From an uncultured Desulfobacterales bacterium (GTDB lineage Bacteria; Desulfobacterota; Desulfobacteria; Desulfobacterales; Desulfobacteraceae): a stretch of 64,000 bases of DNA. Location: positions 201 to 64,200 of the forward strand of contig CAYNHL010000002.1 of assembly GCA_964397015.1 (NCBI GenBank), written 5' to 3'. The translations under genes were made by a program, and so were the position numbers. Positions 12,024-61,745 of the stretch are shown here, piece after piece; positions within the stretch are counted from its first letter, which is position 1, and each line of letters begins with the position of its first letter. The notes beneath the pieces were generated by a model that searched no databases, was not told the origin of the DNA, and worked only from the letters and a program-made list of their open reading frames with translations.

Positions 12024-13673
12024 ATGAACAAGACCCCATGCCGGATGCTGACAATGATCCAGGACCCCGGGCTGCCTGATATTCTGCGCAGGGCTGTGAG
12101 TACACTCGATGATATCGAGATTGTCCGGGTTTCGGCACTGGATGATCTCTTCGATTCCCTTATGGAATCGCTTTTTTTCCTTGTGGTGGTGGAGTCAGAT
12201 CCATCTGAAAAGCCGCTCGAGAATCTTGTAATGCGGATAGGCGCCACCCGGCGGCTGGACCATACCCCCCTGCTTGTGTTGACAGACAAGGCATCGAAAC
12301 TTCCTGCAGAATTGCCGGGCAATACAGCATGGGTGGACTGCATGGTTATGCAGAAAAAAACAGTGCAGCTCGAGCTTGCGGCACGGATCAGGCTGTATCA
12401 TGAACTGTTCAAACAGCGGCAGGCGGTCGCCCGAAGCATTGAAGAACTGGATAACATTTATGCCCGGCTGGCCAGGAACCAGGATGCCATGAATTTCCAC
12501 AAGGCTGTTTTGTACAAGACCGCTTTTTCAACAGCAACTTTTGCAACAAAACTGGATCATTCCCTGAGGATGCTGAAAAGCAGCCTGCATGGCATGGAAA
12601 AGCATGACAACCTGCCCGCCGGCTGCAGGCCTTACCTGTCCGGTATCCGTACTGTCATACGGAGTGTCCGCGGGATAGCCGCCAGTATTCAGGCGGGAAA
12701 ACGGTCCGGGGCTGTAATGGAGACCATTCAGCAGCAGCCGGAAGAAATGATCAGGGTGCTGGCAGTCCTGTCGTCCAGCGATGATTTCAACATGCTTCGC
12801 CATGCTCTGAACCAGGGCATGGCCAGCTGCCTGAAGCATGCTGAAACACTGGAACAGGCCTTTGTATTCGTTACAGATGAGCCATTTGACCTGGTTTTCT
12901 CAGGGGACAGCTTTTTTGACGGTACAGGTTTTGATTTTTTGGATTACCTGCGTCAGATAAGGTCAAACATCCCTGTGATTTATGTAACCGGCAAAAGCGA
13001 AGGTGATAAAGCGGCCCGTGCTGTCAGCAAAGGGGCGTATGACTTCATGTTCAGGGAAGATATTTCCATTCCGGCCGTATCGGCGCTGGTAAAGGGAACT
13101 TTTGAAAAAGCCGCCCTGGAAAGGGAAGTCTCGGCTACCAGGCACCGCATTGAAATGCTTTCGAGTATAGACCATTTAACCCGGCTCAATACTAAAAAAT
13201 GTTTTGATGAGACCCTGGAGTTGGAAATAGCCAGATCCAGGCGGTATGAACTGCCGTTGTCCATATTGATTGTCGATTTTGATCACTTCAGGAATGTCAA
13301 TGAAACCTGCGGTTATCCGGACGGGAACACCGCCCTTGCGGTCAGTGCCGGGATTATTGAGAGTACGGTCCGTTCCCATGATGTGGTTTGCCGTTACGGC
13401 GGGGAAGAGTTCGGGGTGGTATTGCCCAACACGAGTGAACAGGGGGCTGTTATCCTGGCAGAAAGGATCCGGAGAAAAATTGAAGACCAGGTATTTGCCT
13501 GTGACAGCGGTCAGGCCCGCCTGACCGTCAGTATCGGTGCAGCAGTATTCAGCCCGGGCTCAGCAGGCGGACCTGGTACCATGGTGAAGCAGGCCCTGGA
13601 TGCACTGTCAAAGGCTATGGCTGAAGGCGGCAACAGGGTCGCGTTGCCGGAAACAGGAAAGACAAACCCATGA
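12024..13673 (+). CDS. Response-regulator-type diguanylate cyclase (degenerate REC, coiled coil, REC, GGDEF)
   Basis: C-terminal GGDEF domain (RYGGEEFGVVLP, DHFRNVNETCGYPDGN). Central REC-like segment (VLAVLSSSDDF...DLVFSGDSFFDGTGFD...VIYVTGK). Confidence 0.85.
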   Translation: MNKTPCRMLTMIQDPGLPDILRRAVSTLDDIEIVRVSALDDLFDSLMESLFFLVVVESDPSEKPLENLVMRIGATRRLDHTPLLVLTDKASKLPAELPGNTAWVDCMVMQKKTVQLELAARIRLYHELFKQRQAVARSIEELDNIYARLARNQDAMNFHKAVLYKTAFSTATFATKLDHSLRMLKSSLHGMEKHDNLPAGCRPYLSGIRTVIRSVRGIAASIQAGKRSGAVMETIQQQPEEMIRVLAVLSSSDDFNMLRHALNQGMASCLKHAETLEQAFVFVTDEPFDLVFSGDSFFDGTGFDFLDYLRQIRSNIPVIYVTGKSEGDKAARAVSKGAYDFMFREDISIPAVSALVKGTFEKAALEREVSATRHRIEMLSSIDHLTRLNTKKCFDETLELEIARSRRYELPLSILIVDFDHFRNVNETCGYPDGNTALAVSAGIIESTVRSHDVVCRYGGEEFGVVLPNTSEQGAVILAERIRRKIEDQVFACDSGQARLTVSIGAAVFSPGSAGGPGTMVKQALDALSKAMAEGGNRVALPETGKTNP

Positions 13674-14653
13674 CCGAATTTGGCACAGGTGAAATCCGCC
13701 GTATCCATGAGTGGGATCAGCAGCAGTCACAGGATATCGAACTGCTGTTCGATTTTACAAACCATCCGGCTGACAGTCATTTTGAAAATCTGGCCCGGCA
13801 GCTTGAACACCTGGCTTCCCGCATGAAGATAACCCGGAGAAAAGATACAAATACGGCTGGCCGCAAGCAGCTTCCGGGCATAGTGATAAATGACCGTATC
13901 CGGTATTCGGCGCTGCCGTATGCCAAGGCATTGCCGTCCTTTCTGGCCGCCCTTTCCGGCAGGCAGGCAGAGCCTGATGACAAAATCAGGCAGATGGTGG
14001 AAAAGATTGAGATTCCCCTCGAGTTGAAACTTTATGTCGCACCGGCCTGTCCGCACTGCCCGGCAATGGTTGATACCCTGCTGTCCATGACAGCCGACTG
14101 TCCGCAGATATCCCTGCATATCGTGGACGGAACCCTTTTTGAAGAAAGTGCCGCTAACGACAGGGTGATGTCAGTGCCCTGCCTGATCCGGGACGATGGT
14201 TTCCAATGGACAGGTACTGCCGATGCTATTGATATCTGCAGCATGATAGTGGACAGGGATTTGTCCGGGCTGTCCACCCATGCGCTGAAAACTGTCCTTG
14301 AACAGGGAAAGGCAGGCTGGATAGCGGAACAGATGATGGCAAAGAATAAAATTTTTCAAGGTTTTTTTGGATTGCTCGTACACGAGACCTGGTCGGTGCG
14401 GCTCGGGGCAATAGTGGTCGTGGAAACACTTGCCGAACAGCATCCGGTCCTTGCTGAAAAACTTTGTCCTTTCCTGCTGGCCCAGTTTTCACAAAGTGAT
14501 GTTACGGTTCAAGGAGATATTCTGTATGCCCTGGGCGAGGCCGGGAACAGGGCAGTTCGTGACCATATCCTGGAGATCATGGAGACCGTTGATAACGAGG
14601 CGGTCCGCCAGGCGGCGCAGGAGGCCGTCGAGACCATCGATTCCAGGTGTTGA
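13670..14653 (+). CDS. Thioredoxin/glutaredoxin-like (CPHC) protein with C-terminal HEAT-like repeats
   Basis: LKLYVAPACPHCPAMVDTL followed by VPCLI is the thioredoxin-fold pattern. The C-terminus has helical repeats (SVRLGAIVVVETLAE, QGDILYALGEAGN). ATGA overlap with the GGDEF gene. Confidence 0.7.
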   Translation: MTEFGTGEIRRIHEWDQQQSQDIELLFDFTNHPADSHFENLARQLEHLASRMKITRRKDTNTAGRKQLPGIVINDRIRYSALPYAKALPSFLAALSGRQAEPDDKIRQMVEKIEIPLELKLYVAPACPHCPAMVDTLLSMTADCPQISLHIVDGTLFEESAANDRVMSVPCLIRDDGFQWTGTADAIDICSMIVDRDLSGLSTHALKTVLEQGKAGWIAEQMMAKNKIFQGFFGLLVHETWSVRLGAIVVVETLAEQHPVLAEKLCPFLLAQFSQSDVTVQGDILYALGEAGNRAVRDHILEIMETVDNEAVRQAAQEAVETIDSRC

Positions 14654-20608: not shown

Positions 20609-21616
20609 TCACAGGCGGTGCTTTTTTTTCAGTCCCCTGAACTGGTCATAGGTCAGGCCAAGTATCCGGGCCGCTTTTTTCTGGTTGTGTCTGCATGTTT
20701 CAAGGGCATTTGACAGGCGGGTTTTTTCCAGGGTCAATACGGCTTCTTTGATCGGCATATGGTTCAATCTTTCCATGACGTCGACCGGTGCGCCATTTGT
20801 GCCGGATGGATTAAGGTATTTTGACAAAGGTGAATCAAAAGGATTGAAATGGATGTTTGAGATAACCGGTGTCGCGGATCTGTAAACTGCCCGTTCAATG
20901 ACATTTTTAAGTTCCCTGATATTGCCTGGCCAGGCATAGGTTTCAAGGGCCAGGGCAGCTTTTTCGCTGAATCGGGGGATTTGGGGCCGGCCGAGTTCGT
21001 AGGCCATGCGCTGGGCAAAATGGTCGGCTATCAGGAGAATATCCCCTTCTCTCTCCCGCAGTGGCGGGACAAAAATCACTTCAAAGGACAGCCGGTCTAA
21101 AAGATCCTGTTTGAACTGTCCTGCAGCGGCCATTGCCGGCAGGTTGGCATTGGTGGCAGCAACGATGCGGACATCCACGGAAACAGGCTGCGGGCTGCCC
21201 ACCCGCTCAAAGCGGTTGTATTCAACCACCCTTAAAATTTTTTCCTGGACCTCCATGGGAATGGTGCCTATTTCATCGAGGAACAGGGTGCCTTCGGATG
21301 CGATTTCAAAACGGCCCGGCTGCCGGGCTGCGGCACCTGTAAATGCCCCTTTTTCATACCCGAACAATTCCGACCCGATAAGGCCGGGGGTCAATGAAGA
21401 GCAGTTCAGTGTGACCAGGTTTTTCTGCCAGCGGCCGGACAGGTAGTGGATGCGGGCGGCGGCCAGTTCCTTGCCTGTGCCGCGTTCCCCAATGATGAGA
21501 ACCGGGCGGTTGATGGGGGCGACCTGGGAGATCTGGTCCTGGAACGCTAAAAAGGAATCTGACTGGCCAATTGCTTCGGGCAGGTTAGACGGTGTGCGCA
21601 TTATGTCAGAGGACAT
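20609..21616 (-). CDS. pspF: Sigma54-dependent activator lacking a receiver domain (PspF-like)
   Basis: AAA+ core (GERGTGKE, GAFTGA, ESELFGYEKGAFTG-like segment, RFERVG) plus a C-terminal HTH. It is divergent from pspA. Confidence 0.85.
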   Translation of the reverse strand: MSSDIMRTPSNLPEAIGQSDSFLAFQDQISQVAPINRPVLIIGERGTGKELAAARIHYLSGRWQKNLVTLNCSSLTPGLIGSELFGYEKGAFTGAAARQPGRFEIASEGTLFLDEIGTIPMEVQEKILRVVEYNRFERVGSPQPVSVDVRIVAATNANLPAMAAAGQFKQDLLDRLSFEVIFVPPLREREGDILLIADHFAQRMAYELGRPQIPRFSEKAALALETYAWPGNIRELKNVIERAVYRSATPVISNIHFNPFDSPLSKYLNPSGTNGAPVDVMERLNHMPIKEAVLTLEKTRLSNALETCRHNQKKAARILGLTYDQFRGLKKKHRL

Positions 21617-21639
21617 TTGTTTCTCCTGGTGCGGGCAGA

Positions 21640-21667
21640 TAATTGGTTAAAATAACTGTTAATTGGT
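21640..21667. promoter_or_regulatory. Candidate enhancer (UAS) for PspF: two TAATTGGT direct repeats exactly 20 bp apart
   Basis: TAATTGGT occurs at 21640-21647 and 21660-21667, about 80-105 bp upstream of the sigma54 promoter. Confidence 0.3.
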
Positions 21668-21744
21668 ATTTTTTACCATATAGATTCTGAAGGGTCAATA
21701 TAAAATCTGTTGATATCATTGGCATTTTTCACGCCCTGCACTTC

Positions 21745-21760
21745 TGGCACAGTATATGCT
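21745..21760 (+). promoter_or_regulatory. Sigma54 (-24/-12) promoter of pspABC
   Basis: TGGCAC-agtat-ATGCT, with 10 nt between GG and GC. It lies about 78 nt upstream of the pspA ATG. Confidence 0.7.
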
Positions 21761-21836
21761 CAAGCCCTGTGGTGTACCAGAAAAAATGATTAAAGGAATA
21801 AAAAGCAATATCAACATAAATTCAAGGAGAAAACAG

Positions 21837-22517
21837 ATGGGAATTTTTACAAGATTCAGGGACATTATCACATCCAATATCAATGCAATGCTGGACAGGG
21901 CGGAAGACCCGGAAAAACTGATAAAACTGATGATCCGGGAAATGGAAGATACCCTGGTCGAGCTCAAGGCCTCCTGTGCCAACACCATTGCCAGCCAGAA
22001 AAAAGTGGGGCGGATAATCAATGACATCAAAGACAAGGAGGACTTCTGGGAGTCCAAGGCCCAGCTGGCGGTTGACCGGGGAAGAGATGATCTTGCCCGC
22101 CAGGCGCTCAAGGAAAAAAAGGGGTATTCAAGGCGCCTGGAAACCCTGGAGACGGAGGTGGCTGAGCTTGACGCCATTGTCGAGCAGTACCGGGATGATA
22201 TACAGGCCCTTGAAGACAAACTGAAGACAGCCAGGGAAAAACAGCGCATGCTGGTTCAGCGGCATATCCGGGCCAGCCGGAAAAAAAAGGTCCACGAAGA
22301 GATCAGGCGGGCTGACAGCGCGGAAATCATACAGAAATTTGATGAAATGGAAAATCATATAGAGCAGATGGAAGCTGAAGCCGATTTGGTCAATTACGGA
22401 AAAAAAGGCTCCCTGGAAGAGGCGTTCGATGATCTGGTCATGGATGATGAAATTGAAGCCGAACTGTCTGAGCTTAAATCGACCAAAGTTTTGGAAAATG
22501 ATGAAAAAATTTCATAG
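21837..22517 (+). CDS. pspA: Phage shock protein A
   Basis: MGIFTRFRDIITSNINAMLDRAEDPEKLIKLMIREME is the PspA/IM30 N-terminus. Coiled coil throughout. SD AAGGAGA. The start is moved from 21756. Confidence 0.9.
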   Translation: MGIFTRFRDIITSNINAMLDRAEDPEKLIKLMIREMEDTLVELKASCANTIASQKKVGRIINDIKDKEDFWESKAQLAVDRGRDDLARQALKEKKGYSRRLETLETEVAELDAIVEQYRDDIQALEDKLKTAREKQRMLVQRHIRASRKKKVHEEIRRADSAEIIQKFDEMENHIEQMEAEADLVNYGKKGSLEEAFDDLVMDDEIEAELSELKSTKVLENDEKIS

Positions 22518-30594: not shown

Positions 30595-31554
30595 TCAAGA
30601 AGATACCGTTGTGACAAATTTACTGGCCGTGCCGGTGCGGTATATATCGGTTTTCATAAAGTTGATAAACGCTTTTTCCGTCAGCGTTAAAACCTTGTCC
30701 TGAAGGAGGACCAAAGAAATTTTGTTGATAATGTCTTTTTTCCCGGTCCTGATGGGAATGATCCGGCCCTGCTTCAATTCCCTGCTCACTATGTGGGAAG
30801 CTACGACGCCGAGCCCTAGATGGCTTTTCATGCCGGATATGACGGCCTGGTGGTTGTCCACTGTCAAGACACGGTTCAATATCATGGAATGCTTGTTGAA
30901 GTGGTGTTTGAACCAGTTTATAAGGGGCAGCGAGCTTTTCTGGTAGGAAATGAATTCCTTTGTGGAAAGATTTTTAAAAGAATGATCCTTGTTGATCTTC
31001 CGTTCATAATAGTCACTGGAGCAGGCCAAAATGATCTCTTCGTCGATCAGTGGCTCGATGCTGTAGATGCCGAAATCCCTGGAGATCTGCTCCCTGGTTA
31101 AAAAGGCATCCACCAGGCCGAAATCAAGCTCGCCTTTGGCAATCATGGGGAAGATGCGGGCCGGGTCCCCTAACGTCATGGTAAATATCACTTCGGGATA
31201 AAGATCCCTGAAACCGGCAAAAAGACCCGGAAAATAGAATTTACCAAATTCAATGGGGGCCCCGATTCTCAGGACACCGGAAGGAATTTTTTTGCGGCTG
31301 ATAATGCTTTCAGTTCCATAGTCCAGCTGTTTTACAAAAGGCTGAATTATATCGAACAGTTCCTGCCCGGCCAGGGTGGGAACCAGTTTTTTGTGCAAAC
31401 GGATGAACAACAGAGTGTTAAGTTCTTCTTCAAGCCTTGTAAGTCTCTGGCTGACGGCTGAAGGTGAAATGTTCAGTTCCCTGGCCGCGCCTGCCACGCT
31501 GGTCTGGAGAAACACAAAGTAAAAGACTTTGAGGCGGTTAAAATCAGGAAGCAT
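30595..31554 (-). CDS. LysR family transcriptional regulator
   Basis: N-terminal wHTH (FVFLQTSVAGAARELNISPSAVSQRLTRLEEEL) plus a substrate-binding domain. Confidence 0.9.
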   Translation of the reverse strand: MLPDFNRLKVFYFVFLQTSVAGAARELNISPSAVSQRLTRLEEELNTLLFIRLHKKLVPTLAGQELFDIIQPFVKQLDYGTESIISRKKIPSGVLRIGAPIEFGKFYFPGLFAGFRDLYPEVIFTMTLGDPARIFPMIAKGELDFGLVDAFLTREQISRDFGIYSIEPLIDEEIILACSSDYYERKINKDHSFKNLSTKEFISYQKSSLPLINWFKHHFNKHSMILNRVLTVDNHQAVISGMKSHLGLGVVASHIVSRELKQGRIIPIRTGKKDIINKISLVLLQDKVLTLTEKAFINFMKTDIYRTGTASKFVTTVSS

Positions 31555-45861: not shown

Positions 45862-46872
45862 ATGCGAACGGTCGATGCAATTATTGTGGGCGGGGGGCCG
45901 GCTGGTGCCAGCTGCGCATGGGAGCTGGCCAGGCAGGGGCTGACACCGCTGATCCTGGAAAAAAAGGTGTTTCCGCGCCAGAAGCTGTGTGCCGGCTGGG
46001 TGACTCCCGAAGTTTTCAGGGCGCTTGAGTGTGACCCGTCGCAATATCCTTTTGGCATCGAGCGGGTTAACACCATTTTTTTTCATTTGTTCAAGCTGAC
46101 ACTTCCATTGAAAACCCGGCAATACTCAATCCGGCGGATTGAATTCGACCAGTGGATGCTGAACCGGTCCGGGGCCGAGGTGATTTGTCACCGGGTAGCG
46201 AAAATAGACAGGGAAAAGGACATGTTTGTCGTGGACCAGGCCTTCAGATCACGGTTCATTATCGGAGCAGGGGGAACCAACTGCCCTGTGGCCCGGCATT
46301 TTTTTTCACGCAGAGAAAAGCCGTCAGCCGCCGAATGCATTATCACCCTTGAAAAGGAATTTTATGGCACAAGCCGGCTTTCCGGCTGCCACCTGTGGTT
46401 TTTCAGGCACCACCTGCCCGGATATGCCTGGCTGGTTCCCAAGGCCGGGGGATACCTGAACATAGGTATCGGCGGTAAACTGGCCGGGTTGAAAAAAAGA
46501 AAAACAACGATTGAAAATCATTGGCACCGGTTTATAAACGACCTGAAACTATCGGGCCATATCCGGGATATGGCCCACAGGCCCAGAGGATATGCCTATT
46601 ATCTCAGGCAGCCCGGACAAACCGCCCATAAAGGTAATGCATTTATCATAGGGGATGCACTGGGCATGGCCACAAGGGACATGGGAGAAGGGATCGGTCC
46701 TGCAGTCAGAAGCGGAATACTGGCAGCCCGGGCAATGGCCTCAGGTAAGCCTCTGTACCTGGATAGCATTGCCCGGTTCAGCCTGCCGGCCATGGTGGCG
46801 GCCGGAATTAAATCCTTGAATCCTGTCCGGCATAAACCAGTTCCAGGCTCTGGCCGGAAGAAGAAAGGGTAA
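45862..46872 (+). CDS. FAD-dependent oxidoreductase, geranylgeranyl-reductase-like
   Basis: [22 protein letters not shown] dinucleotide fold and the later GDALG motif. It starts 4 nt after the cfa stop. Confidence 0.8.
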
Positions 46873-49420
46873 CTGTTATCGTGCTGTTGTCCTGGAAATC
46901 TCCTTTTAAAATAGCCATGGAAAGGGGGTTTTCAAGCTCCTGCTGTATGACGCGTTTCAGGGGTCTGGCTCCGAATACCGGGTCATACCCCTTTTTAGCT
47001 ACGTAATCCATGGCATCTTCATCCAGCTGGACCTGCATGCCGCGTGTTTTAAGCCTTGTATTCAGTTTGTCGACCTGGATCCGGGCAATATCCTTTATAT
47101 CCTCTTGTGTCAGGGAATGGAACGAGATGATATCGTCCACCCTGTTCAGGAATTCAGGCCGGAATACCTCTTTCAATGCCTGGAAAATACCCTCCTGTAT
47201 TTTCGGATCATCCAGATTGTCTGCCGTTCCAGCTTCCTGGAGAAAACGGGAACCGACATTGGATGTCATGATGATGATCGTGTTCCTGAAATCCACTGTC
47301 CTGCCGTGACCGTCTGTCATCCTTCCGTCGTCGAGCACCTGGAGCAGAATATTGAAGACATCGGGATGGGCTTTTTCGATTTCATCAAACAGGAGAACCG
47401 AATAGGGACGGCGGCGGACGGCTTCGGTCAGAAATCCTCCCTCGTCATACCCGACATAGCCGGGAGGAGCCCCGATCAGTCGTGCCACGGAATGTTTTTC
47501 CATGTATTCTGACATATCCATGCGGATCATGGCCTGGTCGCTGTCAAAGATAAATTCGGCAAGGGATTTGGCCAGTTCGGTTTTCCCCACCCCTGTAGGA
47601 CCCATGAAAATAAAAGTGCCAATAGGCCTGTCTTCAGGCTGCAAACCCGAACGGGCGCGCCGGACAGCATTGGAAACAGCGTCAATGGCTTTTTTCTGGC
47701 CTATGACCCGTTTCTGGATGTAGGTCTCCATCTGGACTAGTTTTTCCTGTTCGCTTTTCAGCATACGAGCCACCGGAATACCGGTCCAGGAAGATACCAC
47801 TTCCGCCACATCGGCTTCGTCCACATCTTCCTTGAGCATGCCACCGTTTTCCTGCAGTTTATCGAGTTCCTTCTTTTTATCAGTCAGTTTTTTCTGCAGT
47901 TCTTCAATGGTTCCGTACCTGATCTGTGCCACTTTTTCAAGATCTCCGGCCCTTTCGGCCATCTGGGCCTGTGTCTGGTATTTGTCAATGTCTTCTCGGA
48001 TACCGGAAATTTCCTGGATCAATTTTTTCTCGCTGTCCCAGTGCAGTTTCATGGGGCCGATTTCATCTTTTAATTCCGCCAGTTCCTTTTCAAGTTTGTC
48101 CAGACGGTCCCGGGAGGCCTTGTCTTTTTCCTTGAGCAGGGCCTGCCGTTCGATCTGGGCCTGTGTGATCCTGCGCTGGATTTCATCGATGACCCGTGGC
48201 ATGGAGTCAATTTCAATACGCAGGCGGGAAGCACATTCATCAATCAGGTCCACGGCCTTGTCAGGCAGGAACCTGTCTGCAATGTACCGGTTGGACAGGG
48301 TGGCTGCGGCCACAATGGCCGAATCCTTGATCCTTATGCCGTGATGTACTTCATACTTTTCCTTGAGTCCCCGCAATATGGAAATAGTGTCTTCCACGGT
48401 GGGTTCCCTGGCCATGACCGGCTGGAAGCGACGTTCGAGTGCCGCATCTTTTTCAATGTATTTCCGGTACTCGTTCAGGGTGGTCGCTCCGACACATCGC
48501 AGCGTACCTCTTGCCAGCGCGGGTTTGAGCATGTTGGATGCATCCACCGATCCCTCGGCAGCCCCGGCTCCGACCACGGTATGGAGTTCATCTATAAACA
48601 GGACAATTTCACCTTCGGCCGCTTCTATTTCCTTTAAAACCGCTTTGAGACGTTCTTCAAATTCGCCCCTGAACTTGGCCCCGGCCAGAAGTGCACCCAT
48701 GTCCAGGGCGATGACACGCCGGTCAACAAGTGATTCAGACACATCGCCTTCGACAATGCGCTGTGCCAGGCCTTCGACAATGGCGGTTTTCCCGACACCG
48801 GGTTCCCCGATCAGGACCGGGTTGTTCTTCCGGCGCCGGGACAGGACCTGTACGATCCTGCGGATTTCCTCGTCCCTGCCGATAACCGGGTCCAGTTTCC
48901 CGGTACGGGCCAGTTCTGTCAGGTCTCGGCCGTATTTTTCCAGAGCCTGGTATTTTTCTTCCGGGTTGGGGTCTGTAATGGTCTGGTTGCCGCGGATATC
49001 CTTCAATACCGTAAAGACCGTATCCCTCGTGATACCGTGCCGCTGCAGGATTTTCTGAGCGCTGGATGTCACCTGGGCCATTGCCAGCAGGATATGCTCT
49101 AAGCTGACATACTGGTCTTTCATTTTCCGGGCTTCTTCCAGTGCCTTGTCCAGGATTTTTTTGGCTGTCCCTGACAGGTATGTGTCGGCAGCACCGGAGA
49201 CCTGTACCAGCTTCTCGAGTGCGGCGGTCGCATCCTGCTGCAGCTGGGAAACCGGAACGCCGAGTTTTTTGAAAATGGAAACACAGATGCCCTCGGAATC
49301 AGCCAGCATGGCCATGAGGAAATGCTCGGGCTCGATGTACTGGTGATTTTTTTTGCTGGCAATGTCATGGGCATTTTGAATCAATGCCTGTGATTTCATG
49401 GTAAATTTATCAAAAGTCAT
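46808..49420 (-). CDS. clpB: Chaperone disaggregase ClpB
   Basis: Two AAA+ modules ([18 protein letters not shown]), a long middle coiled coil and a Clp N-domain. The start is set at MTFDKFT (49420). Confidence 0.95.
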
Positions 49421-49557
49421 TTTATTTAGTCCTTTCATTATTTTTCATTATTTAATACATAAAGTAATGCTGCCTCCTGTGACGTCAAGGGGTTGTTCCT
49501 GTTTCTTTTTTCAGCACGAAACCAGAGCCGGGTCTATTGATCTTTGGAATGCCATTC

Positions 49558-49985: not shown

Positions 49986-50963
49986 ATGAGCAACAGAAAA
50001 AAGGATCATGCCGCCTGCCAGACCGAGTTGATGGATCAGCTGAATTACCGCCGCAAACTGCCTGATGTCATTGATCATGTTATAAGTTCAATTGATGATG
50101 ACCGCTGCTTTGCCCATGTGGGAGACGATCCGCTGCATTTTTCGACATCTGTTACGGAAATGATCGATAAATTCAGGGAAATTCTTTTCCCGGGATATTT
50201 TTCAAGTGAAAAGGTGGATCATGCCAACCTGCGTTACCATATAGGCCAGGCCGTGTCCAGGCTGTATGATATACTGTCCCACCAGGTGATGCATGTGCTT
50301 CGGCATGATTGTCTGAGATACGGCCAGGTCTGCACGGTCTGCGAGGAAAAAGGCAATTCAGTGGCAATGAAAGTGATCGAAGCCATCCCGTCCCTGCGCA
50401 TCATACTTTCCAAGGATGTAAGGGCCGCTTATGCTGGAGATCCGGCAGCCAAAAGCTTTGACGAGATCATTTTTTCATATCCAGGGCTCTATGCCATCAT
50501 GGTGTACCGTATTGCTCACCTGCTGTTTGAGAACGGCGTTCCCCAGCTGCCCCGGATTTTAACTGAACATGCCCATTCCGTGACCGGGATCGATATTCAT
50601 CCGGGGGCCCGGATCGGTGAGAATTTCGTTATCGATCACGGGACCGGTATTGTAATAGGAGAAACCAGTGAAATCGGAAGCAATGTAAGGATCTACCAGA
50701 ATGTCACTATCGGAGCGCTGTCCCTGCCGGCGGACGCCGGGGACAAACTGCGCTGGGCCAAGCGCCATCCTACGATCGAGGACGATGTCATCGTCTATTC
50801 AGGCGCGACCATTCTCGGTGGAGAGACCCGCATCGGCGCCCGTTGTGTCATTGGCGGCAATGTCTGGCTGACTGAATCGGTACCGCCGGATACCAAGGTT
50901 TTTATCGAAACCCCCCGGCAGGTATTTAAAAACCATGATGCAGAAAAAGGCGGTGAAAAATGA
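49986..50963 (+). CDS. cysE: Serine O-acetyltransferase (long N-terminal form)
   Basis: Hexapeptide-repeat core GIDIHPGARIGENFVIDHGTGIVIGETSEIGSNVRIYQNVTIG. Confidence 0.85.
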   Translation: MSNRKKDHAACQTELMDQLNYRRKLPDVIDHVISSIDDDRCFAHVGDDPLHFSTSVTEMIDKFREILFPGYFSSEKVDHANLRYHIGQAVSRLYDILSHQVMHVLRHDCLRYGQVCTVCEEKGNSVAMKVIEAIPSLRIILSKDVRAAYAGDPAAKSFDEIIFSYPGLYAIMVYRIAHLLFENGVPQLPRILTEHAHSVTGIDIHPGARIGENFVIDHGTGIVIGETSEIGSNVRIYQNVTIGALSLPADAGDKLRWAKRHPTIEDDVIVYSGATILGGETRIGARCVIGGNVWLTESVPPDTKVFIETPRQVFKNHDAEKGGEK

Positions 50964-51880
50964 TGATAAAACCTGATATGACCCACACCTGCTTCAATAC
51001 CCCGCTGGTACGCCTGGAAAAGGCCAGCGCCGAGTCAGGAGCCATATTGCTGGCAAAGGTCGAATTTTTCAACCCCACCGGCAGTGTCAAGGACAGAATA
51101 GGGTACGCCATGATCGAAGATGCCTGGGAAAAGGGTCTGATCAACCGGCAGTCGGTAATAGTGGAACCTACCAGCGGTAATACAGGTATAGCCCTGGCTT
51201 TTGTCGCCGGGATCAAGGAACTGACTTTGATATTGACCATGCCGGAATCGATGAGCATAGAGCGAAGAAAGCTGCTCAAACACCTGGGTGCCCGCCTGGT
51301 TCTCACTCCCGGGGCCCAAGGAATGAAGGGTGCCATCAGTGAAGCCGTAAGAATTGTTGAAAACACTCCCGATGCCTATATGCCGGACCAGTTTTCCAAT
51401 CCGTCCAACCCGAAGATCCATCGGGAAACAACGGCTGTCGAAATCTGGGAAGACACCGGCGGCCAGGTGGATATCTTTGTTGCAGGTGTAGGTACCGGCG
51501 GAACAATTACCGGCGTGTCAGAGGTGTTGAAACAAAAGAAGCCCGCAATACGCTCCGTTGCCGTGGAACCGGCTGATTCTCCGGTGCTTTCCGGTGGGAA
51601 ACCCGGTCCTCATTCAATCCAGGGAATTGGTGCCGGATTTGTGCCTGCCGTATTGAACCGGGATATCATTGACGATATTGTAACAATAACCACAGCCCAG
51701 GCACTTTCCGGGGCAAGACAGCTGGCCCTGCAGGCCGGAATGCTCTGCGGCATCTCCTCCGGCGCCAATTATGCAGCCGCCCGGCAGGTGGCTTCAAGGC
51801 CGGAGAACCGGGGGAAAACCATCGTGTTCGTGGTCTGTGATACCGGAGAGAGGTATATCAGTACCGGCCTGTTCAGCTGA
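50960..51880 (+). CDS. cysK: Cysteine synthase A (O-acetylserine sulfhydrylase)
   Basis: NPTGSVKDR PLP-lysine motif, EPTSGNTGIALA and GTGGTITG. ATGA overlap with cysE. Confidence 0.92.
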   Translation: MMIKPDMTHTCFNTPLVRLEKASAESGAILLAKVEFFNPTGSVKDRIGYAMIEDAWEKGLINRQSVIVEPTSGNTGIALAFVAGIKELTLILTMPESMSIERRKLLKHLGARLVLTPGAQGMKGAISEAVRIVENTPDAYMPDQFSNPSNPKIHRETTAVEIWEDTGGQVDIFVAGVGTGGTITGVSEVLKQKKPAIRSVAVEPADSPVLSGGKPGPHSIQGIGAGFVPAVLNRDIIDDIVTITTAQALSGARQLALQAGMLCGISSGANYAAARQVASRPENRGKTIVFVVCDTGERYISTGLFS

Positions 51881-51895
51881 AGCTCAAACTCAATC

Positions 51896-53065
51896 TTATA
51901 CTGCAGCCCCGTCTTTCCAGAAAGGTGACATGTCCCTGAGTTTTTGAATGGCAGGCACCATGACATTGACAATGCGGTCCATTTCTTCCCTTGTATTGTC
52001 GCATGAAAGGGAAAACCGTATGGAGCCGTGGGCGGACTTGAATGGTACCTTCATGGCCATGAGTACATGGGATGGTTCAAGGGACCCTGATGTACAGGCC
52101 GATCCCGAGGAGGCACAGATTCCCTCCCGGTCCAGCAGCAGCAGGATGGATTCCCCTTCAACAGCATCAAATCCTATGCTCAATGTATTGGGCAGCCGGT
52201 GCGTTATATCGCCGTTTACCGATGTGCCTGGTATTTTGGCCAGCAGCTGGGATTCAAGGTGATCCCTGAGTTCCCTGACATGGGTATCCATTTTGTCAAT
52301 GTGTGCTCCTGCAAGCTCACAGGCCTTTCCTAAACCGATAATGGATGCCGTGTTTTCAGTTCCTCCCCGCCGGCCTTTTTCCTGGTGTCCGCCGATAAGG
52401 AAGGGCTTGAACTTGAGTCCCTTTCTGACATAAAGTGCAGCTACCCCTTTGGGGGCATGTATTTTATGGCCTGATAAAGACAGCATGTCCACACCGGCTT
52501 TGTTTACATCTATGGGGATTTTGCCTGCAGCCTGTACCGCGTCGGTGTGAAAGACAATGCCCTTTTCACGGGCCATGCCGGCAATTTCTTCAATGGGAAA
52601 TATCACCCCTGTTTCATTGTTGGCCCACATGATGGAAATGACTGCAGTATCGCCGGACATGCTGGTATAAAGGGTGTCCATATCCAGGTTCCCTTTTTTG
52701 TCAACCGGTACAAAGGTGACCCGGTAGCCTTTTTTTTCAAGGGTTTTGAATAAGCTGTCAATGGCAGGATGTTCGACGCTGGAGGTGATGATATGCTTTT
52801 TTTCGGGTGCATTCAAAAGTGCGGCATTGACTGCGGCATTATCACTTTCAGTGCCGCAGCTGGTAAATATGATTTCCCCGGGATCGGCATTGATCAATCC
52901 GGCCACCTGCTGCCTGGCAGCGGACAGTTCTCTTGCGACATTGCCGCCGAATGAATGCATGGACGACGGATTGCCGTAATAGCGGCCGAAAAAAGGCAGC
53001 ATTTTTTCGATCACTTCGTCTGCCACCCGGGTGGTGGCATTGTTGTCTGTATATATGATATCCAT
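51896..53065 (-). CDS. nifS: Cysteine desulfurase, NifS type
   Basis: YTDNNATT, GTESDN, SGHKIHAPKG (PLP Lys) and the active-site loop SSGSACTS. Confidence 0.9.
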   Translation of the reverse strand: MDIIYTDNNATTRVADEVIEKMLPFFGRYYGNPSSMHSFGGNVARELSAARQQVAGLINADPGEIIFTSCGTESDNAAVNAALLNAPEKKHIITSSVEHPAIDSLFKTLEKKGYRVTFVPVDKKGNLDMDTLYTSMSGDTAVISIMWANNETGVIFPIEEIAGMAREKGIVFHTDAVQAAGKIPIDVNKAGVDMLSLSGHKIHAPKGVAALYVRKGLKFKPFLIGGHQEKGRRGGTENTASIIGLGKACELAGAHIDKMDTHVRELRDHLESQLLAKIPGTSVNGDITHRLPNTLSIGFDAVEGESILLLLDREGICASSGSACTSGSLEPSHVLMAMKVPFKSAHGSIRFSLSCDNTREEMDRIVNVMVPAIQKLRDMSPFWKDGAAV

Positions 53066-53082
53066 GTGAACAGTATCCTTGT

Positions 53083-53640
53083 CTAAGCTTTCACCGATTC
53101 AATAATGTCTTCGATTTTTTCGATGCAATTTCCGCAACCGCCTCCGGCCTTGAGATAGTTGGTGACATCTTCCACTGAATCCAGTTTTCGGGTCTTAACG
53201 GCATCGATGATTTCCAGGTCGGTGATGCCAAAACACTCGCAGACGATTTCACCCGGTTTGTCCAGTATCTGGACTCCACGGTAAGATGCAATGGCTTTTT
53301 TAAGAGCCTGTTGTCCCATGACGGAGCAGTGCATCTTTTCTTTGGGAAGTCCCCCTAAATAATCAGCAATGTCTTCATTGGTTATTTTTTCCGCATCCTC
53401 GACGGTCATGCCCTTTATTATTTCCGTAAGGGCTGAGGAAGAGGCTACTGCACTGGCACATCCAAAAGTCATGAAGCTTGCATCCATGATACGGCCATTC
53501 TTGTTGATTTTCAAAAACAGCCTGAGGGCATCCCCGCAGGAGAGTGATCCGGTTTCGCCAACAGCATTGGCATCCTTCATTTCACCCACATTCCTGGGGT
53601 TTAAAAAATGTTCCTTGACTTCATCTGTATATTCCCACAT
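53083..53640 (-). CDS. nifU: NifU-like Fe-S scaffold (IscU-like domain plus BFD-like [2Fe-2S] domain)
   Basis: GSLSCGDALRL, TFGCASAVASSS, LPKEKMHCS, then CECFGI...GGCGNC. Confidence 0.85.
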   Translation of the reverse strand: MWEYTDEVKEHFLNPRNVGEMKDANAVGETGSLSCGDALRLFLKINKNGRIMDASFMTFGCASAVASSSALTEIIKGMTVEDAEKITNEDIADYLGGLPKEKMHCSVMGQQALKKAIASYRGVQILDKPGEIVCECFGITDLEIIDAVKTRKLDSVEDVTNYLKAGGGCGNCIEKIEDIIESVKA

Positions 53641-53882: not shown

Positions 53883-54737
53883 ATGCTCAAGGAAAAAAAA
53901 ATCGGGTTTATCGGTGGCGGAAATATGGCGGAAGCCCTTGTGAGCGGACTGGTCCAGTCCGGAGCGGCACAGCCCGATAATATTATATGTTCAGATATCT
54001 ATGATGATGTGCTGGCCGCTCTTGAAGAAAAATACAAGGTCCATACCACCAGAGATAACCGCGAGGTGGTATCGGAGTCCGACATTGTCATATTTGCTGT
54101 CAAACCGCAGATCCTGGGGTCGGTGCTCAAGGAAACGGCCGATGGCCTGGACATGTCCAAACTGATCATTTCAATAGCTGCAGGTGTTCCCCTGGCCGCC
54201 ATTGCTGCCGGCCTGAACAAAAAGCTGCGCCTGATCAGGGTCATGCCCAATATATGTGCATTTGTCAAGGAGAGTGCCACTGCCATAGCGGCCGGTGAAT
54301 ATGTCACTGACAAGGATGTCCCCTTTGCCAGGGCAATTTTTGATTCAGTGGGAAAAACGGTCTTTATACAGGAAAACGTCCTGATGGATGCTTTTACCGG
54401 TTTGAGCGGCAGCGGCCCTGCCTATATTTTCCTGATTATTGACGCCATGGCAGATGCCGGGGTTAAAATGGGACTGTCGCGGAAAGATTCCCGGTTATTG
54501 TCCACCCAGACAGTACTTGGGGCGGCAAAGCTGCTGCTGGAAACAAACGAGCATCCAGGCCAGCTCAAGGACCGGGTGACATCACCGGGCGGCACCGCCA
54601 TCGCAGGTATCCACACCCTCGAGGAAGGAGGGTTGCGGACCACGTTGATCAATGCGGTGGAGTCGGCCACCCGGCGCTCCAGGGAACTCGGGGAGATGAT
54701 GGTAAAAGAGTTTACCAGGGCCAACGGTGAAAAATAA
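53883..54737 (+). CDS. proC: Pyrroline-5-carboxylate reductase
   Basis: IGFIGGGNMAEAL, VMPN, and the GSGPAY...SPGGTT-like motif (TSPGGTAIAG). Confidence 0.9.
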   Translation: MLKEKKIGFIGGGNMAEALVSGLVQSGAAQPDNIICSDIYDDVLAALEEKYKVHTTRDNREVVSESDIVIFAVKPQILGSVLKETADGLDMSKLIISIAAGVPLAAIAAGLNKKLRLIRVMPNICAFVKESATAIAAGEYVTDKDVPFARAIFDSVGKTVFIQENVLMDAFTGLSGSGPAYIFLIIDAMADAGVKMGLSRKDSRLLSTQTVLGAAKLLLETNEHPGQLKDRVTSPGGTAIAGIHTLEEGGLRTTLINAVESATRRSRELGEMMVKEFTRANGEK

Positions 54738-54759: not shown

Positions 54760-55116
54760 TTACTGCACCTGCAGCTCTTTTTTCAGCCAGTTTTTAATAT
54801 TGCCTTCCACCGCATAAACACCCTTGTACTGGCCTATCCCGCTTAAAAATTCTTTTTCAAGCAGCTGCGGCAGTTCGAATTCGGCCAGCTCTTCAGAGTC
54901 GAATCCTTTTCTGCGGATCAGGCGCACCACCGGTGATTTGGACCAGGTACTGATCACAAAATAGACGGTTTCATTGTCGTTGTCCCGTGAATTGTAATAG
55001 GCCTGTGACCGCAGCGGCCCCCATTCAAGATGGAGCGCAATGGCCTCTTCGGGGGTCATTTCCCAGTCCACGGAGTTTATCAGTTGTGTGTCGGTTTTTA
55101 TATCTTCAAGTTTCAT
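54760..55116 (-). CDS. Hypothetical protein (118 aa)
   Basis: The ORF has SD AGGAGGATACA-ATG. No motif recognised. Confidence 0.55.
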   Translation of the reverse strand: MKLEDIKTDTQLINSVDWEMTPEEAIALHLEWGPLRSQAYYNSRDNDNETVYFVISTWSKSPVVRLIRRKGFDSEELAEFELPQLLEKEFLSGIGQYKGVYAVEGNIKNWLKKELQVQ

Positions 55117-58740: not shown

Positions 58741-59571
58741 CTACAGGGAATCGATCAGTTCCCCCAGGTGCCTGAGATGCTGTTTTTCCTCATTGGCAAT
58801 ACGGTAGAGCATGTCCCTGCTTTCAGGCGTGTCAGCCTGTTTTGCCGCACGTTCATAAAGATCGAGCGCCTGGGCTTCGATTGACATGGCCATGGCAATG
58901 ACCTCGGCAGGAACATTCAGGTCTGTTTTAAACAGCTCCAGGTATTCTGATGATGTCATGCCGCCTTCCAGAACCGTATCATCCACTTTTGCCTCGAGGG
59001 CCTGCTTGTCTGTATCCGGGTCAACCCGGTCCTGGTATTCTTTAAGCAGCCGGTCCTGGTGGATGATTTCAATGTCAGCCAGTTTTGAAAAAAGATCGCG
59101 TACGGCTGAATTGTCTGTTTCATCGGCCATGGAAAGGTAGAACTGTCTCAAACCGATTTCCAGAGAATAGGCTGTCAACAGGTTTTTATCCAGGGATTCA
59201 TTACCTGAGAACAGTTCAAGACCCTGGGTCTGGGGCCCGACAGCCACATTCCCCTGGTATCCCTTTATTCCCCCTGAAATATTGTAAACTTTATCAAACC
59301 CTTTCCCGGAAAGCATCTGCGCAGCCACCCGGCTACGTCCGCCAATAGCTCAATAGACCAGGACCGGTTTGTGGGGATCGATTTCACCCATCCGGTCCGA
59401 CAGTTCGGGAAATGGAATCAGGGTGGCGCCGGGAATATGACTCTCCTGGTATTCTGACGGCTGCCGGACATCCAGAAGGGTGAATTCGTTTCCCGGAGTT
59501 TCATTGATAAATGACCGGGTTTCAGGCCCGGTCATCGATTTGACCGGTGTAAAAAACTGTTTCCATTTCAT
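58741..59571 (-). CDS. Predicted selenoprotein: rhodanese domain (Sec at the catalytic position) fused to a ferritin/rubrerythrin-like diiron domain
   Basis: Two same-frame track ORFs are joined by a single TGA (59350-59352), giving ...HKPVLVY-U-AIGGRSRVAAQML..., the rhodanese C-x4-R-S loop. A SECIS-like hairpin follows. The C-terminal domain has two ExxH motifs (EIIH, EKQH). SD TGAGGA before ATG 59571. Confidence 0.75.
59320..59337 (-). promoter_or_regulatory. Candidate bacterial SECIS hairpin
   Basis: The mRNA reads CGUAGCC-GGGU-GGCUGCG: a 7-bp stem including one G-U, spanning nt +16 to +33 from the U of UGA, with apical-loop G/U at +23 to +26. Confidence 0.55.
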
Positions 59572-59637
59572 GATATATCCTCAAATTATTTATTGAACAT
59601 GGTGCCTGCCCTTAGTGGAAAGACAATTGTGTCTCAA

Positions 59638-59963: not shown

Positions 59964-61745
59964 TCAGATGGGGCGTGTCTTGGTTTTCAGCCACTGCCTG
60001 ACCGGTGGATCCAGTAACGGGGAAACGGTCTGGTATACCCGTTCATGGTAGTCGTTGATCCAGGCTGTTTCATCGTCATCCATCAGGGTTTTGTCTATCA
60101 GGGCCACTTCATAATGACAGAGAGTGAGGGTTTCAAAGGACAAAAACTGCCCAAATTCAGTTTTTATATCTTTTCTGGCCAGCAGCATGTTTTCAATGCG
60201 GATTCCCCATCTGCCCTCCCGGTAGATACCGGGCTCATCAGTTAGCACCATCCCTGGTTTTATGGCTGAGTCAACGGGATGGGGGCTGATGCTGGCAGGT
60301 CCCTCGTGAATATTGAGGAAAAAGCCTACTCCATGGCCTGTGCCATGCCCGAAATTGATGCCCTGCCGCCACATGGCCTGCCTTGCCAGCGTGTCCAGCC
60401 CGAATCCCCGGGTCCCTTTCGGGAAGCGGGCTCTGGCCAGGGCGATATGTCCCTTCATTACCAGGGTATAATCTTTTATCGCCTGGTCGGGAGGGTCTCC
60501 AAGATAGACAGTCCGGGTGATGTCTGTTGAGCCGCTCATATAGTGCCCGCCGGTGTCAGATAAAAACATGCCCGGTTTTTTAATGCCATAATCGGTTTCG
60601 GCGGTAGCGGCATAATGACAGACAGGGGAGTGGTCTTTGAAGGCCATGATGGGATTGAAGCTGTCCTCCATGAACTCCGGCTGCTGTTTTCTGAAATCGT
60701 GAATTTTTTGTCCTGCCGAAATTTCGGTGATCCTGCCTGTTTCATGGCAGGTTTCCACCCAGTGCAGAAAACTGATGACAGCCGCACCGTCCTTGATCAT
60801 GGTCTCCCTTAAATGCCGTATTTCAACTTCATTTTTAACTGATTTCAGCCGGGTTGCAACAGAAGGTGCATTTATGATCCGGCAGTTTTTTTCCACAGCC
60901 GAGAAAATGGCATGGTTGACTGTTTTTTCACAAATCAGTGCCGTATTTTTCTTATCCTGTCGCGTGGACAGGAACAAAACAAGGTCATCGTAGTCATGGA
61001 TCTGGACATTGTCTGATTCCAGCCTAAGAATCAATGAGCTGTCCAGCTTGTTCTTGTTGATAAACAGGTGCGCTTTTTGTGTTTCTATTACTGCAAAGGC
61101 GATATTGACAGGGCTGTGACTGATATCCGCCCCCCTGAGATTGAATATCCAGGCAATGTCATCGAGCCCGGTGACAATGTAAAAATCGGCATGTGACTCC
61201 TTTATACTGCAGCGTAACTGTTCAATTTTTGCCTTCCGGTCCATGCCTGAAAAAGCTACAGGAAACTCCCAGGCAGGTGAATCCGGAAGGGCCGGCCTGT
61301 CTGTCCACAGTCTGGTGACATGATCTGTCCGGGTGTTTAAGACAATCTGTCTTGCAGAAAATGTCTTTTCAAGATTGTGAACTGTTTCTGCGCTGAACAG
61401 TTTCTGGTCTATCCCGACAACGGCGTTGTCCGGCAGGTGATCTGTCAGCCATTTTGTATAGGTGGGAACACCGGGCTCCCCTGTTTTCATCAGTTCAAAT
61501 TCAGAAGAGGCGATCTGGCGGGCGGCCTGGATAAAGTAACGTGAGTCGGTCCATAAAAGGGCTTTGTCACGGGTCACCACGGCTGTACCGGCAGAGCCGG
61601 TGAAACCGGTCAGCCATCGCCTTGTCTGCCAGTGGTCAGGCAGGTATTCGCTCAAGTGTGGGTCCCTGTCAGGGACAATACAGGCGCTGATGCCTTCTTC
61701 GGCCATCAGCGCACGGAGTTTTGAAAGCTTGTCATCAGTTGTCAT
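59964..61745 (-). CDS. Xaa-Pro aminopeptidase (M24B, three-domain form)
   Basis: Creatinase/prolidase N-domains plus the pita-bread core ([21 protein letters not shown]). Confidence 0.9.

Follow-up and report, generated by a model that had tools for sequence, protein, structure and literature searches.

The window analysed here, a stretch of 64,000 nucleotides from an uncultured Desulfobacterales bacterium (contig CAYNHL010000002.1), harbours on its minus strand a gene of 276 codons interrupted by a single in-frame TGA. This gene very probably codes for a selenoprotein in which a rhodanese domain with selenocysteine (Sec) at its catalytic position is fused to a rubrerythrin-type di-iron domain (Table 1). 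In the list of open reading frames (ORFs), the locus appears as two pieces, 59350..59571 (73 residues) and 58741..59328 (195 residues, with a GTG start), and it is annotated elsewhere as two ORFs of 73 and 191/195 residues. The sequence and the ORF list show one minus-strand frame, unbroken from ATG 59571-59569 to TAG 58743-58741 save for the TGA at 59352-59350. Translation across this codon gives IDPHKPVLVY-UGA-AIGGRSRVAAQMLSGKGF, i.e. a joined product of 276 residues, as an initial annotation of this DNA had read it. The latter also credited the downstream piece with neither an ATG nor a Shine-Dalgarno sequence. No Shine-Dalgarno sequence is indeed found 5' of its possible starts, but an in-frame ATG is present (59316-59314, Met86), from which a gene caller starts a 191-residue product (P0001). 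As Met86 is a conserved internal residue in the homologues with a Cys residue in place of the UGA (Cys forms), this ATG is no evidence of a translation start.

The joined product comprises an N-terminal rhodanese domain and a C-terminal rubrerythrin/ferritin-like four-helix domain. The UGA, codon 74, falls exactly at the position of the rhodanese catalytic Cys, in the context VY-C/U-AIGGRSR, and the PF00581 match together with the six-residue loop U/C-A-I-G-G-R after a beta strand identify the domain as a rhodanese of the catalytically active type. In the C-terminal part, the putative di-iron ligands E138, E168, H171, E232, E262 and H265 occupy columns that are invariant in an alignment of 25 homologues. 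They make up the E, ExxH, E, ExxH set of a di-iron four-helix bundle (PF02915), and include the two ExxH motifs, E168..H171 and E262..H265, that had been noticed in the initial annotation. The AlphaFold2 model of the fusion (predicted local distance difference test score, pLDDT, 80.4; predicted template modelling score, pTM, 0.77) has an alpha/beta rhodanese fold whose strand 70-72 runs into the U/C-AIGGR loop, then a low-confidence linker (residues 100-112) followed by a long-helix bundle, with four long helices of pLDDT 86-95.

Sequence and fold searches of the PDB matched the rhodanese half to GlpE/PspE-like single-domain proteins, as well as to the corresponding domains of CoADR-RHD (36% identity), of the NADH-dependent persulfide reductase Npsr and of fusions between persulfide dioxygenase and rhodanese (PRF). 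The di-iron half gave weak matches to TM1526 (1vjx) and to encapsulated-ferritin-like proteins (2fzf). Foldseek searches against the PDB returned rhodanese-domain matches alone, and no solved two-domain relative was found there. The Pfam, alignment, modelling and fold data thus agree with the fusion of a rhodanese with a ferritin/rubrerythrin di-iron domain proposed at the outset. No rubredoxin-like FeS4 domain was detected with Pfam in the 276-residue product, which is therefore not a canonical rubrerythrin. No NCBIfam model flags the fusion as a selenoprotein, the best matches being generic and far below their cut-offs. The NF041203 model (rhodanese_LYCAU, a CxU 'rhodanese-related (seleno)protein') scores 29.6 bits for a cut-off of 115, and the motif here is Y-U-A, not C-x-U. 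As no model recognizes the selenoprotein, its annotation is systematically split.

A search with the joined protein yielded 1,588 relatives. Among these, the best full-length sequences (274-282 residues, 53-58% identity) belong to Desulfobacter, Desulfobacterales and other Desulfobacterota, and all have both the Rhodanese and the Rubrerythrin domains. The column of the TGA codon is a Cys in 25/25 aligned full-length homologues (VYCA[IV]GGRSR). With the 73-residue N-terminal piece as the query, 177 matches were obtained; of the 120 listed, about 105 have a length of exactly 73 residues, with 55-73% identity, and more than 100 distinct 73-residue clusters of NCBI, JGI, ENA and Logan ORFs end at the same residue. 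When each species was represented by one genome, 542 or more candidate stretches were found to encode relatives; the best 80 were retained and 79 classified, as locus L047 did not match the motif. At the catalytic column, these 79 species-level loci have TGA in 43 cases, TGC in 23 and TGT in 13, giving 36 Cys forms; as the retained loci are those closest to the TGA-form query, this TGA share of 54% is biased upward for the whole family. Thus, the aligned residue is Cys or TGA and never another, both in the 25 full-length proteins and in the 79 loci, which answers a question raised in the initial annotation.

The TGA forms include that of the cultured Desulfospira joergensenii DSM 10085 and those of many Desulfobacula and Desulfotignum metagenome-assembled genomes (MAGs), and the Cys forms include those of Desulfobacter curvatus, strain NaphS2, Desulfosarcina widdelii, Desulfofustis glycolicus and Scalindua MAGs. 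In a neighbour-joining tree of the proteins, the Sec and Cys forms are intermingled: parsimony requires 12 or more changes, and in five sister pairs one member has Sec and the other Cys. Two features by which selenoprotein genes are recognized are thus present, namely an in-frame UGA within an otherwise intact, conserved ORF, and Sec/Cys orthologue pairs along with other TGA orthologues. The family is widespread in sulfate-reducing bacteria and routinely mis-annotated as two genes.

The TGA codon is genuine. Two Logan assemblies from separate sequencing (SRA) runs contain the same gene with the same TGA, so that independent assemblies give neither of the Cys codons, TGC or TGT, that resequencing might have revealed. 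The L001 assembly has a single difference in the 831-nt gene, T59335C (L001:1117), a synonymous, strain-level change from CGU to CGC. Pairwise ratios of non-synonymous to synonymous substitution rates (dN/dS) in the TGA forms are 0.14 before the TGA (codons 1-73) and 0.17 after it (codons 75-276), indistinguishable from those of the Cys forms (0.16 and 0.15 for the same two parts), with synonymous sites near saturation (dS ~1.6). These similarly low values on both sides of the TGA argue that both are maintained as coding sequence, under purifying selection of equal strength. Elsewhere in the window, TGA is an ordinary stop codon, for instance at the end of the next gene (57570-57568).

In Escherichia coli fdhF, the Sec insertion sequence (SECIS) is a SelB-binding hairpin directly 3' of the UGA. 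A putative counterpart here, the hairpin described in the initial annotation, does start at the 13th nucleotide after the UGA. Its conserved core consists of a 6-bp stem (59337-59332 with 59325-59320) and a loop C-G-K-G-U-N, after a 12-nt spacer. An alignment of the 60 nt surrounding the codon in 48 distinct TGA forms and 36 Cys forms is free of indels. The stem cells are paired at 92% in the TGA forms, with 0/500 column shuffles as high, vs 67.6% in the Cys forms, with 320/500 shuffles as high. An A-U pair of the stem is present in 46/48 TGA forms vs 3/36 Cys forms. The first Ala codon of the VAAQ motif (codon +9) is GCU in 50/52 TGA forms but in only 3/36 Cys forms, the others having GCG, GCC or GCA. 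The A-U pair thus hinges on a synonymous choice and, correspondingly, three loop positions never depart from G, G and U in the TGA forms, unlike in the Cys forms. The Arg codon entering the loop is CGG or CGU only in the TGA forms, whereas the Cys forms also use CGC, AGG and CGA, and the residue that follows is always Val in the former but can also be Ile, Met or Ala in the latter.

Compensatory double changes are also found: a C-G pair is replaced by A-U in three sequences, with an Ala-to-Ser substitution, and the terminal pair is similarly changed in four. The strain variant T59335C (U59335C in the RNA) turns the only G.U wobble of the hairpin into G-C. A blind run of RNAalifold yields this hairpin as its only prediction, and the local 27-nt hairpin window has a folding energy of -11.2 kcal/mol in the TGA forms vs -8.6 kcal/mol in the Cys forms (p = 5.6e-5). 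On this comparative, TGA-specific conservation, the hairpin has the character of a SECIS stem-loop kept by selection at a fixed short distance from the UGA. In the sister pairs, a comparison that reduces the effect of phylogenetic relatedness, GCU is found in the Sec member alone in 4/5 cases.

The fifth sister pair, from Desulfosarcina, consists of L075:6219 (TGA, from a MAG) and L086:6219 (TGC, from Desulfosarcina widdelii), which are identical over the 48 nt 3' of the codon and both form a hairpin, GAGCC/GGCUC, that is shifted in register. The pair seems to have switched between Sec and Cys very recently. The GCU codon and the A-U pair are kept in just three Cys forms, L024, L048 and L058. 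The first two are found within a mostly-TGA clade and L058 outside it; because of this position, the hairpins of L024 and L048 may be relic SECIS elements left after conversion to Cys.

The selenoprotein gene belongs to a cluster of genes on the same strand, in the order M24 peptidase, rubredoxin-like protein, selenoprotein, FAD oxidoreductase, DedA-flavoprotein and DVU0772-family protein (Table 1). The true start of the FAD oxidoreductase is likely ATG 58689. The best family of this protein is TIGR03169 'Nterm_to_SelD' (6.8e-74, 249.4 bits, model positions 2-365 of 365), which occurs as a fusion with the selenophosphate synthetase SelD; the curated cut-off, 310 bits, is not reached, which makes the protein a member of a related clade rather than of that family. 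It also matches TIGR04369 (1e-39). The FAD oxidoreductase gene is directly downstream of the fusion gene in 38/40 loci with the TGA form and 27/32 with the Cys form, i.e. in 65 of the 72 loci that extend far enough (~90%). As this adjacency holds regardless of the Sec or Cys form, we consider the FAD oxidoreductase to be a conserved partner. Its sole conserved Cys residue among 45 orthologues is in the flavin motif GGGDC.

Table 1. Features of the selenoprotein locus and of other genes of the window discussed in the text
Feature	Position	Strand	Details
Selenoprotein gene, 276 codons + stop, predicted Sec at codon 74	58741..59571	minus	Single frame, one TGA; co-linear with Cys homologues
Shine-Dalgarno sequence GAGGA	59578..59582	minus	6 nt 5' of ATG 59571; read directly in the sequence
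UGA codon 74, predicted Sec	59350..59352	minus	In the rhodanese active-site loop, U-A-I-G-G-R, in place of the catalytic Cys
Rhodanese domain, residues 29-106	59254..59487	minus	PF00581, 1.5e-19, 70.8 bits (cut-off 22.2)
Rubrerythrin/ferritin-like four-helix di-iron domain, residues 129-271	58759..59187	minus	PF02915, 1.3e-14, 55.2 bits (cut-off 22.8)
Putative SECIS hairpin CGUAGCC-GGGU-GGCUGCG	59320..59337	minus	5' arm 59337-59331, loop GGGU 59330-59327, 3' arm 59326-59320
M24 peptidase	59964-61745	minus	First of the same-strand cluster
Rubredoxin-like protein (rubrerythrin-type), 53 residues	59638..59799	minus	PF21349 RUBY_RBDX, NF045720
FAD/NAD(P)-dependent oxidoreductase (Pyr_redox_2), 373 residues	57568..58689	minus	ATG 58689, AGGAG 58699-58695; longest ORF from 58722
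VTT/DedA membrane domain + MerA/lipoamide-dehydrogenase-like flavoprotein disulfide reductase, 724 residues	55397..57571	minus	CxxxxC
DVU0772-family small protein	54760..55116	minus	NF045682, 104.7 bits (cut-off 45); last of the same-strand cluster
dsrA, dissimilatory sulfite reductase alpha	1024-2352	minus	602 bits; dsrB would run past the window start

The other members of the cluster are less constant. The DedA-flavoprotein gene, whose GTG start codon shares nucleotides with the TGA that ends the FAD oxidoreductase gene, is found in 19/31 TGA loci vs 3/29 Cys loci, which makes it lineage-specific and places it outside the core. A rubredoxin-like gene is present within 3 kb upstream in 22/35 TGA loci vs 1/28 Cys loci. 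Both genes go mainly with the TGA-rich Desulfobacteraceae clade. The DVU0772-family gene is present in 20/46 TGA loci; DVU0772 of Desulfovibrio vulgaris is a predicted member of the PerR oxidative-stress regulon. Syntenic relatives additionally encode a Fer4 protein and a canonical rubrerythrin. A cluster for cysteine and Fe-S metabolism is located nearby (49986-53640), with cysE and cysK on the plus strand followed by nifS and nifU on the minus strand; proC (53883-54737, plus strand) lies between it and the operon, an order shared with the syntenic loci L006 and L007.

Further away in the window, the presence of dsrA, whose 90% sequence cluster holds Desulfobacula, Desulfotignum and Desulfobacteraceae sequences, indicates that this DNA comes from a sulfate reducer of the Desulfobacteraceae. 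A 327-residue ORF (13670-14653, plus strand) resembles the N-terminal thioredoxin-like domain of AhpF in its N-terminal 180 residues (4e-18). This domain class includes known selenoproteins; the ORF has no in-frame TGA. A LysR-type regulator (30595-31554, minus strand) has a 'selenium metabolism-associated LysR' model as its sole strong NCBIfam match, with 118 bits for a cut-off of 250, which is probably generic LysR similarity. The window also contains a phage-shock module with divergent pspF (minus) and pspA (plus) genes (20609-22517), and clpB (46808-49438, minus strand). A mechanical listing of other genes with in-frame TGA codons in the window gave 85 candidates, and the few inspected, with long pieces on both sides, are opposite-strand shadows or adjacent genes. 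One of them, a plus-strand ORF pair at 847-2184 joined by a TGA, is a shadow opposite dsrA.

Judging from the sequence comparisons, UGA74 is very probably decoded as Sec by SelB and Sec-tRNA(Sec), with the hairpin 12 nt downstream acting in recruitment. Several observations weigh against this conclusion. The NCBIfam models detected no selA, selB or selD in the 64-kb window, among ~48 proteins of the main long ORFs, and ARAGORN found no tRNA-Sec or other tRNA in the window or in 30 related loci. In favour of Sec decoding, a related Desulfobacula-like MAG codes for the full Sec machinery and for 34 predicted selenoproteins, including one rhodanese-like protein (PMC8318568). On the opposite side, the minimum free energy over 48 nt is the same in the Sec and Cys forms (p = 0.40), and the 48-nt stretch of this very sequence has a z-score of 0.30, as 119/200 dinucleotide shuffles fold at least as well. 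We therefore rejected the idea that the hairpin alone proves a SECIS, and its significance comes from the comparative data only. The first proposal of a SECIS at this site thus stands on the conservation specific to the TGA forms, whereas the fold of the single sequence is no better than chance. Moreover, the covariation term of RNAalifold is ~0 (-0.02), so that support comes from TGA-linked conservation at synonymous sites, not from abundant covariation, and the 48 TGA sequences are phylogenetically related, which means that the counts overstate their independence. There is no Rfam match at the gathering threshold over the window, nor at E <= 10 over 59200-59450; Rfam is evidently without a model fitting this SECIS.

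Other explanations of the UGA account less well for these data. A TGC or TGT codon mutated or misread to TGA in a dead locus would require a change of only one base, and gene callers do split the locus. However, this reading is effectively refuted by the occurrence of the TGA in three assemblies, one of them from a distinct strain, and at the same column in 43/79 species-level loci and >100 metagenomic clusters, by the absence of further stops or frameshifts in the gene and by a dN/dS of ~0.15 on either side, as in the Cys forms. It is also very unlikely that the gene is truly split, with the UGA terminating a 73-residue fragment and a 191/195-residue protein being separately initiated at GTG 59328 or ATG 59316, the two products perhaps assembling non-covalently. 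These codons are in frame, 21 and 33 nt past the TGA, the two pieces are entered as separate proteins in databases, and some 73-residue product is expected in any case, UGA/SECIS recoding being never 100% efficient (PMC4513850). Nevertheless, termination would cut the active-site loop and remove the catalytic residue, the candidate starts are ordinary conserved Val and Met residues in the Cys forms too and have no Shine-Dalgarno sequence, and GTG 59328 is inside the hairpin loop. A split gene would also leave both the repeated Sec/Cys interchange and the TGA-specific hairpin unexplained. Since conservation demands read-through of some kind and no Sec machinery was found within the window, one might invoke a near-cognate Trp, Cys or Arg tRNA, a suppressor or a reassigned code. 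This is extremely unlikely, as ordinary genes of the window end in TGA and the code is thus not reassigned, the column alternates with Cys only, which is a hallmark of Sec, SelB-dependent decoding calls for just such a hairpin, with a G/U loop and a fixed position, and the lineage is rich in selenoproteins (PMC8318568, PMC1976440). All in all, we are highly confident that the locus is best explained by a single 276-residue selenoprotein gene with SECIS-directed Sec insertion at UGA74, whose product would work with the downstream flavoprotein.

We propose the following scheme for this gene. SelB tethered to the short mRNA hairpin, with its G/U-containing apical loop, would deliver Sec-tRNA(Sec) to UGA74, and termination at this codon would generate the 73-residue fragment as a by-product. 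Sec would stand in for the catalytic Cys of a GlpE/PspE-type rhodanese domain. Electrons from NAD(P)H might then reach the fusion protein through the adjacent flavoprotein, which itself lacks a redox cysteine pair. In the fusion protein, the selenol of the rhodanese loop would carry or reduce a chalcogen adduct (persulfide or perselenide, in Se-S or Se-Se form), and the di-iron bundle might reduce peroxide or O2 in a rubrerythrin-like manner. A module of sulfate reducers for redox stress and sulfane-sulfur detoxification at the sulfide/oxygen interface is thus a possible function, which we put forward tentatively; it counts against this proposal that it is drawn solely from domain content and gene neighbourhood. 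It is rather doubtful whether the two-gene core forms an NAD(P)H-dependent chalcogen-processing system in which the catalytic selenol or thiol is given in trans to the flavin. If so, the di-iron centre would couple persulfide or perselenide chemistry to the reduction of peroxide or O2, and the pair might constitute a selenium or sulfane-sulfur handling route in sulfate reducers, in hundreds of species.

A role in selenium (chalcogen) trafficking and reduction instead of stress defence, with selenium compounds being reduced by the DedA-fused and TIGR03169-like flavoproteins and perselenide being carried towards SelD on the rhodanese site, appears to us unlikely as well. In vitro, rhodanese can form a perselenide and pass selenium on to SelD, and DedA proteins have been associated with the uptake of selenite. 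The best family of the partner is the SelD-fused one (TIGR03169, along with TIGR04369), a VTT/DedA-flavoprotein reductase is part of the operon, and cysE, cysK, nifS and nifU are close by. Against this hypothesis, the TIGR03169 score is below the cut-off (249 vs 310 bits), the partner is equally present beside the Cys forms (27/32), and the DedA fusion is lineage-restricted (3/29 Cys loci). Furthermore, it is not evident what a di-iron domain would do in selenium delivery, and the rubredoxin-like, rubrerythrin, Fer4 and DVU0772 neighbours point rather to oxidative-stress chemistry.

These findings have consequences for annotation, as Sec is present in about half of the closest 79 loci, and a model built for this family would correct the annotation of hundreds of genomes, among them those of cultured type strains such as Desulfospira joergensenii. 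With respect to SECIS biology, the 12 or more Sec/Cys switches and the sister pairs represent a natural experiment on the gain and loss of a hairpin in a constrained coding sequence, as illustrated by GCU vs GCC, GCG or GCA at one Ala codon and by the possible relic hairpins of recent Cys converts. With respect to biochemistry, a selenol-rhodanese loop and a di-iron centre beside a flavoprotein of the SelD-family type make up a testable redox module in organisms of the sulfide/oxygen interface, and the Cys forms offer easy recombinant access to the fusion protein.

Rhodanese-type selenoproteins have reportedly been predicted since 2005, by Zhang and Gladyshev, in a Sargasso Sea survey and in a survey of Olavius symbionts. 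Reviews tabulate five rhodanese selenoprotein 'forms', two of them with a UxxG motif (PMC13188914, PMC9312934), and eight rhodanese-type selenoprotein genes have been described in the deltaproteobacterial symbionts of Olavius (PMC1976440); the statement of the initial annotation that such proteins had already been predicted in marine and deltaproteobacterial surveys is therefore accurate. Like them, the protein described here has Sec for the catalytic Cys of a COG0607/PspE-GlpE-type rhodanese, and its U-A-I-G sequence fits UxxG. It shares with them an origin in Deltaproteobacteria/Desulfobacterota, the existence of Cys homologues and the status of in silico prediction. In contrast with the tabulated proteins, for which the rhodanese domain alone is listed, it has a di-iron fusion and a conserved flavoprotein partner. 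This distinction is based on the descriptions in the tables, and the review representatives MBM9537886.1 and MCY3690685.1 may themselves correspond to this fusion. In a literature search, we found no paper joining rhodanese, rubrerythrin and selenoprotein, and PMC13188914, PMC9312934, PMC1976440 and PMC8318568 name no rubrerythrin domain. Databases already name Cys forms, and one 73-residue fragment, 'rhodanese and rubrerythrin domain protein'. The gene is a standard bacterial Sec/SECIS gene in a known class of rhodanese selenoproteins, with an uncharacterised fusion architecture and a conserved partner.

The putative SECIS resembles that of E. coli fdhF by its location within the coding sequence, its short spacer (12 nt here) and its fixed register with the UGA, as well as by the invariant G and U of the apical loop, at ~+23 to +26 from the U of UGA. 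It differs from it by its 6-7-bp stem, in which no bulged U is evident, and by its unrelated sequence. Similarly, the C-terminal domain has the four-helix bundle and the E, ExxH, E, ExxH ligands of rubrerythrin, the peroxidase of the Desulfovibrio vulgaris Rbr type. Both come from anaerobic sulfate reducers, and rubredoxin-like and rubrerythrin genes are found near the fusion loci. Unlike rubrerythrin, it has no C-terminal rubredoxin domain, its PF02915 match is moderate (55 bits), and its closest solved relatives are 1vjx and 2fzf.

The partner flavoprotein aligns over its full length with the TIGR03169 'Nterm_to_SelD' proteins, but its score is below their cut-off and it has no SelD fusion. 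Among the closest known systems are also CoADR-RHD and Npsr (PDB 3icr, 3nta, 6pfz, 8a56), which likewise combine a Pyr_redox_2 flavoprotein with a rhodanese; the rhodanese domains are 29-36% identical and matched in fold. CoADR models score 47-49 bits on the partner flavoprotein for cut-offs of 458-579, and the latter is thus not a CoADR-RHD or Npsr protein. Those enzymes unite the two parts in a single polypeptide, with a CoA-binding redox Cys in the flavoprotein, whereas here they are encoded by separate genes, the Cys of the flavoprotein is found only in GGGDC, and the rhodanese bears an additional di-iron domain. Nevertheless, by analogy, this likeness suggests that the pair may perform NAD(P)H-driven chemistry on a sulfane-sulfur carrier.

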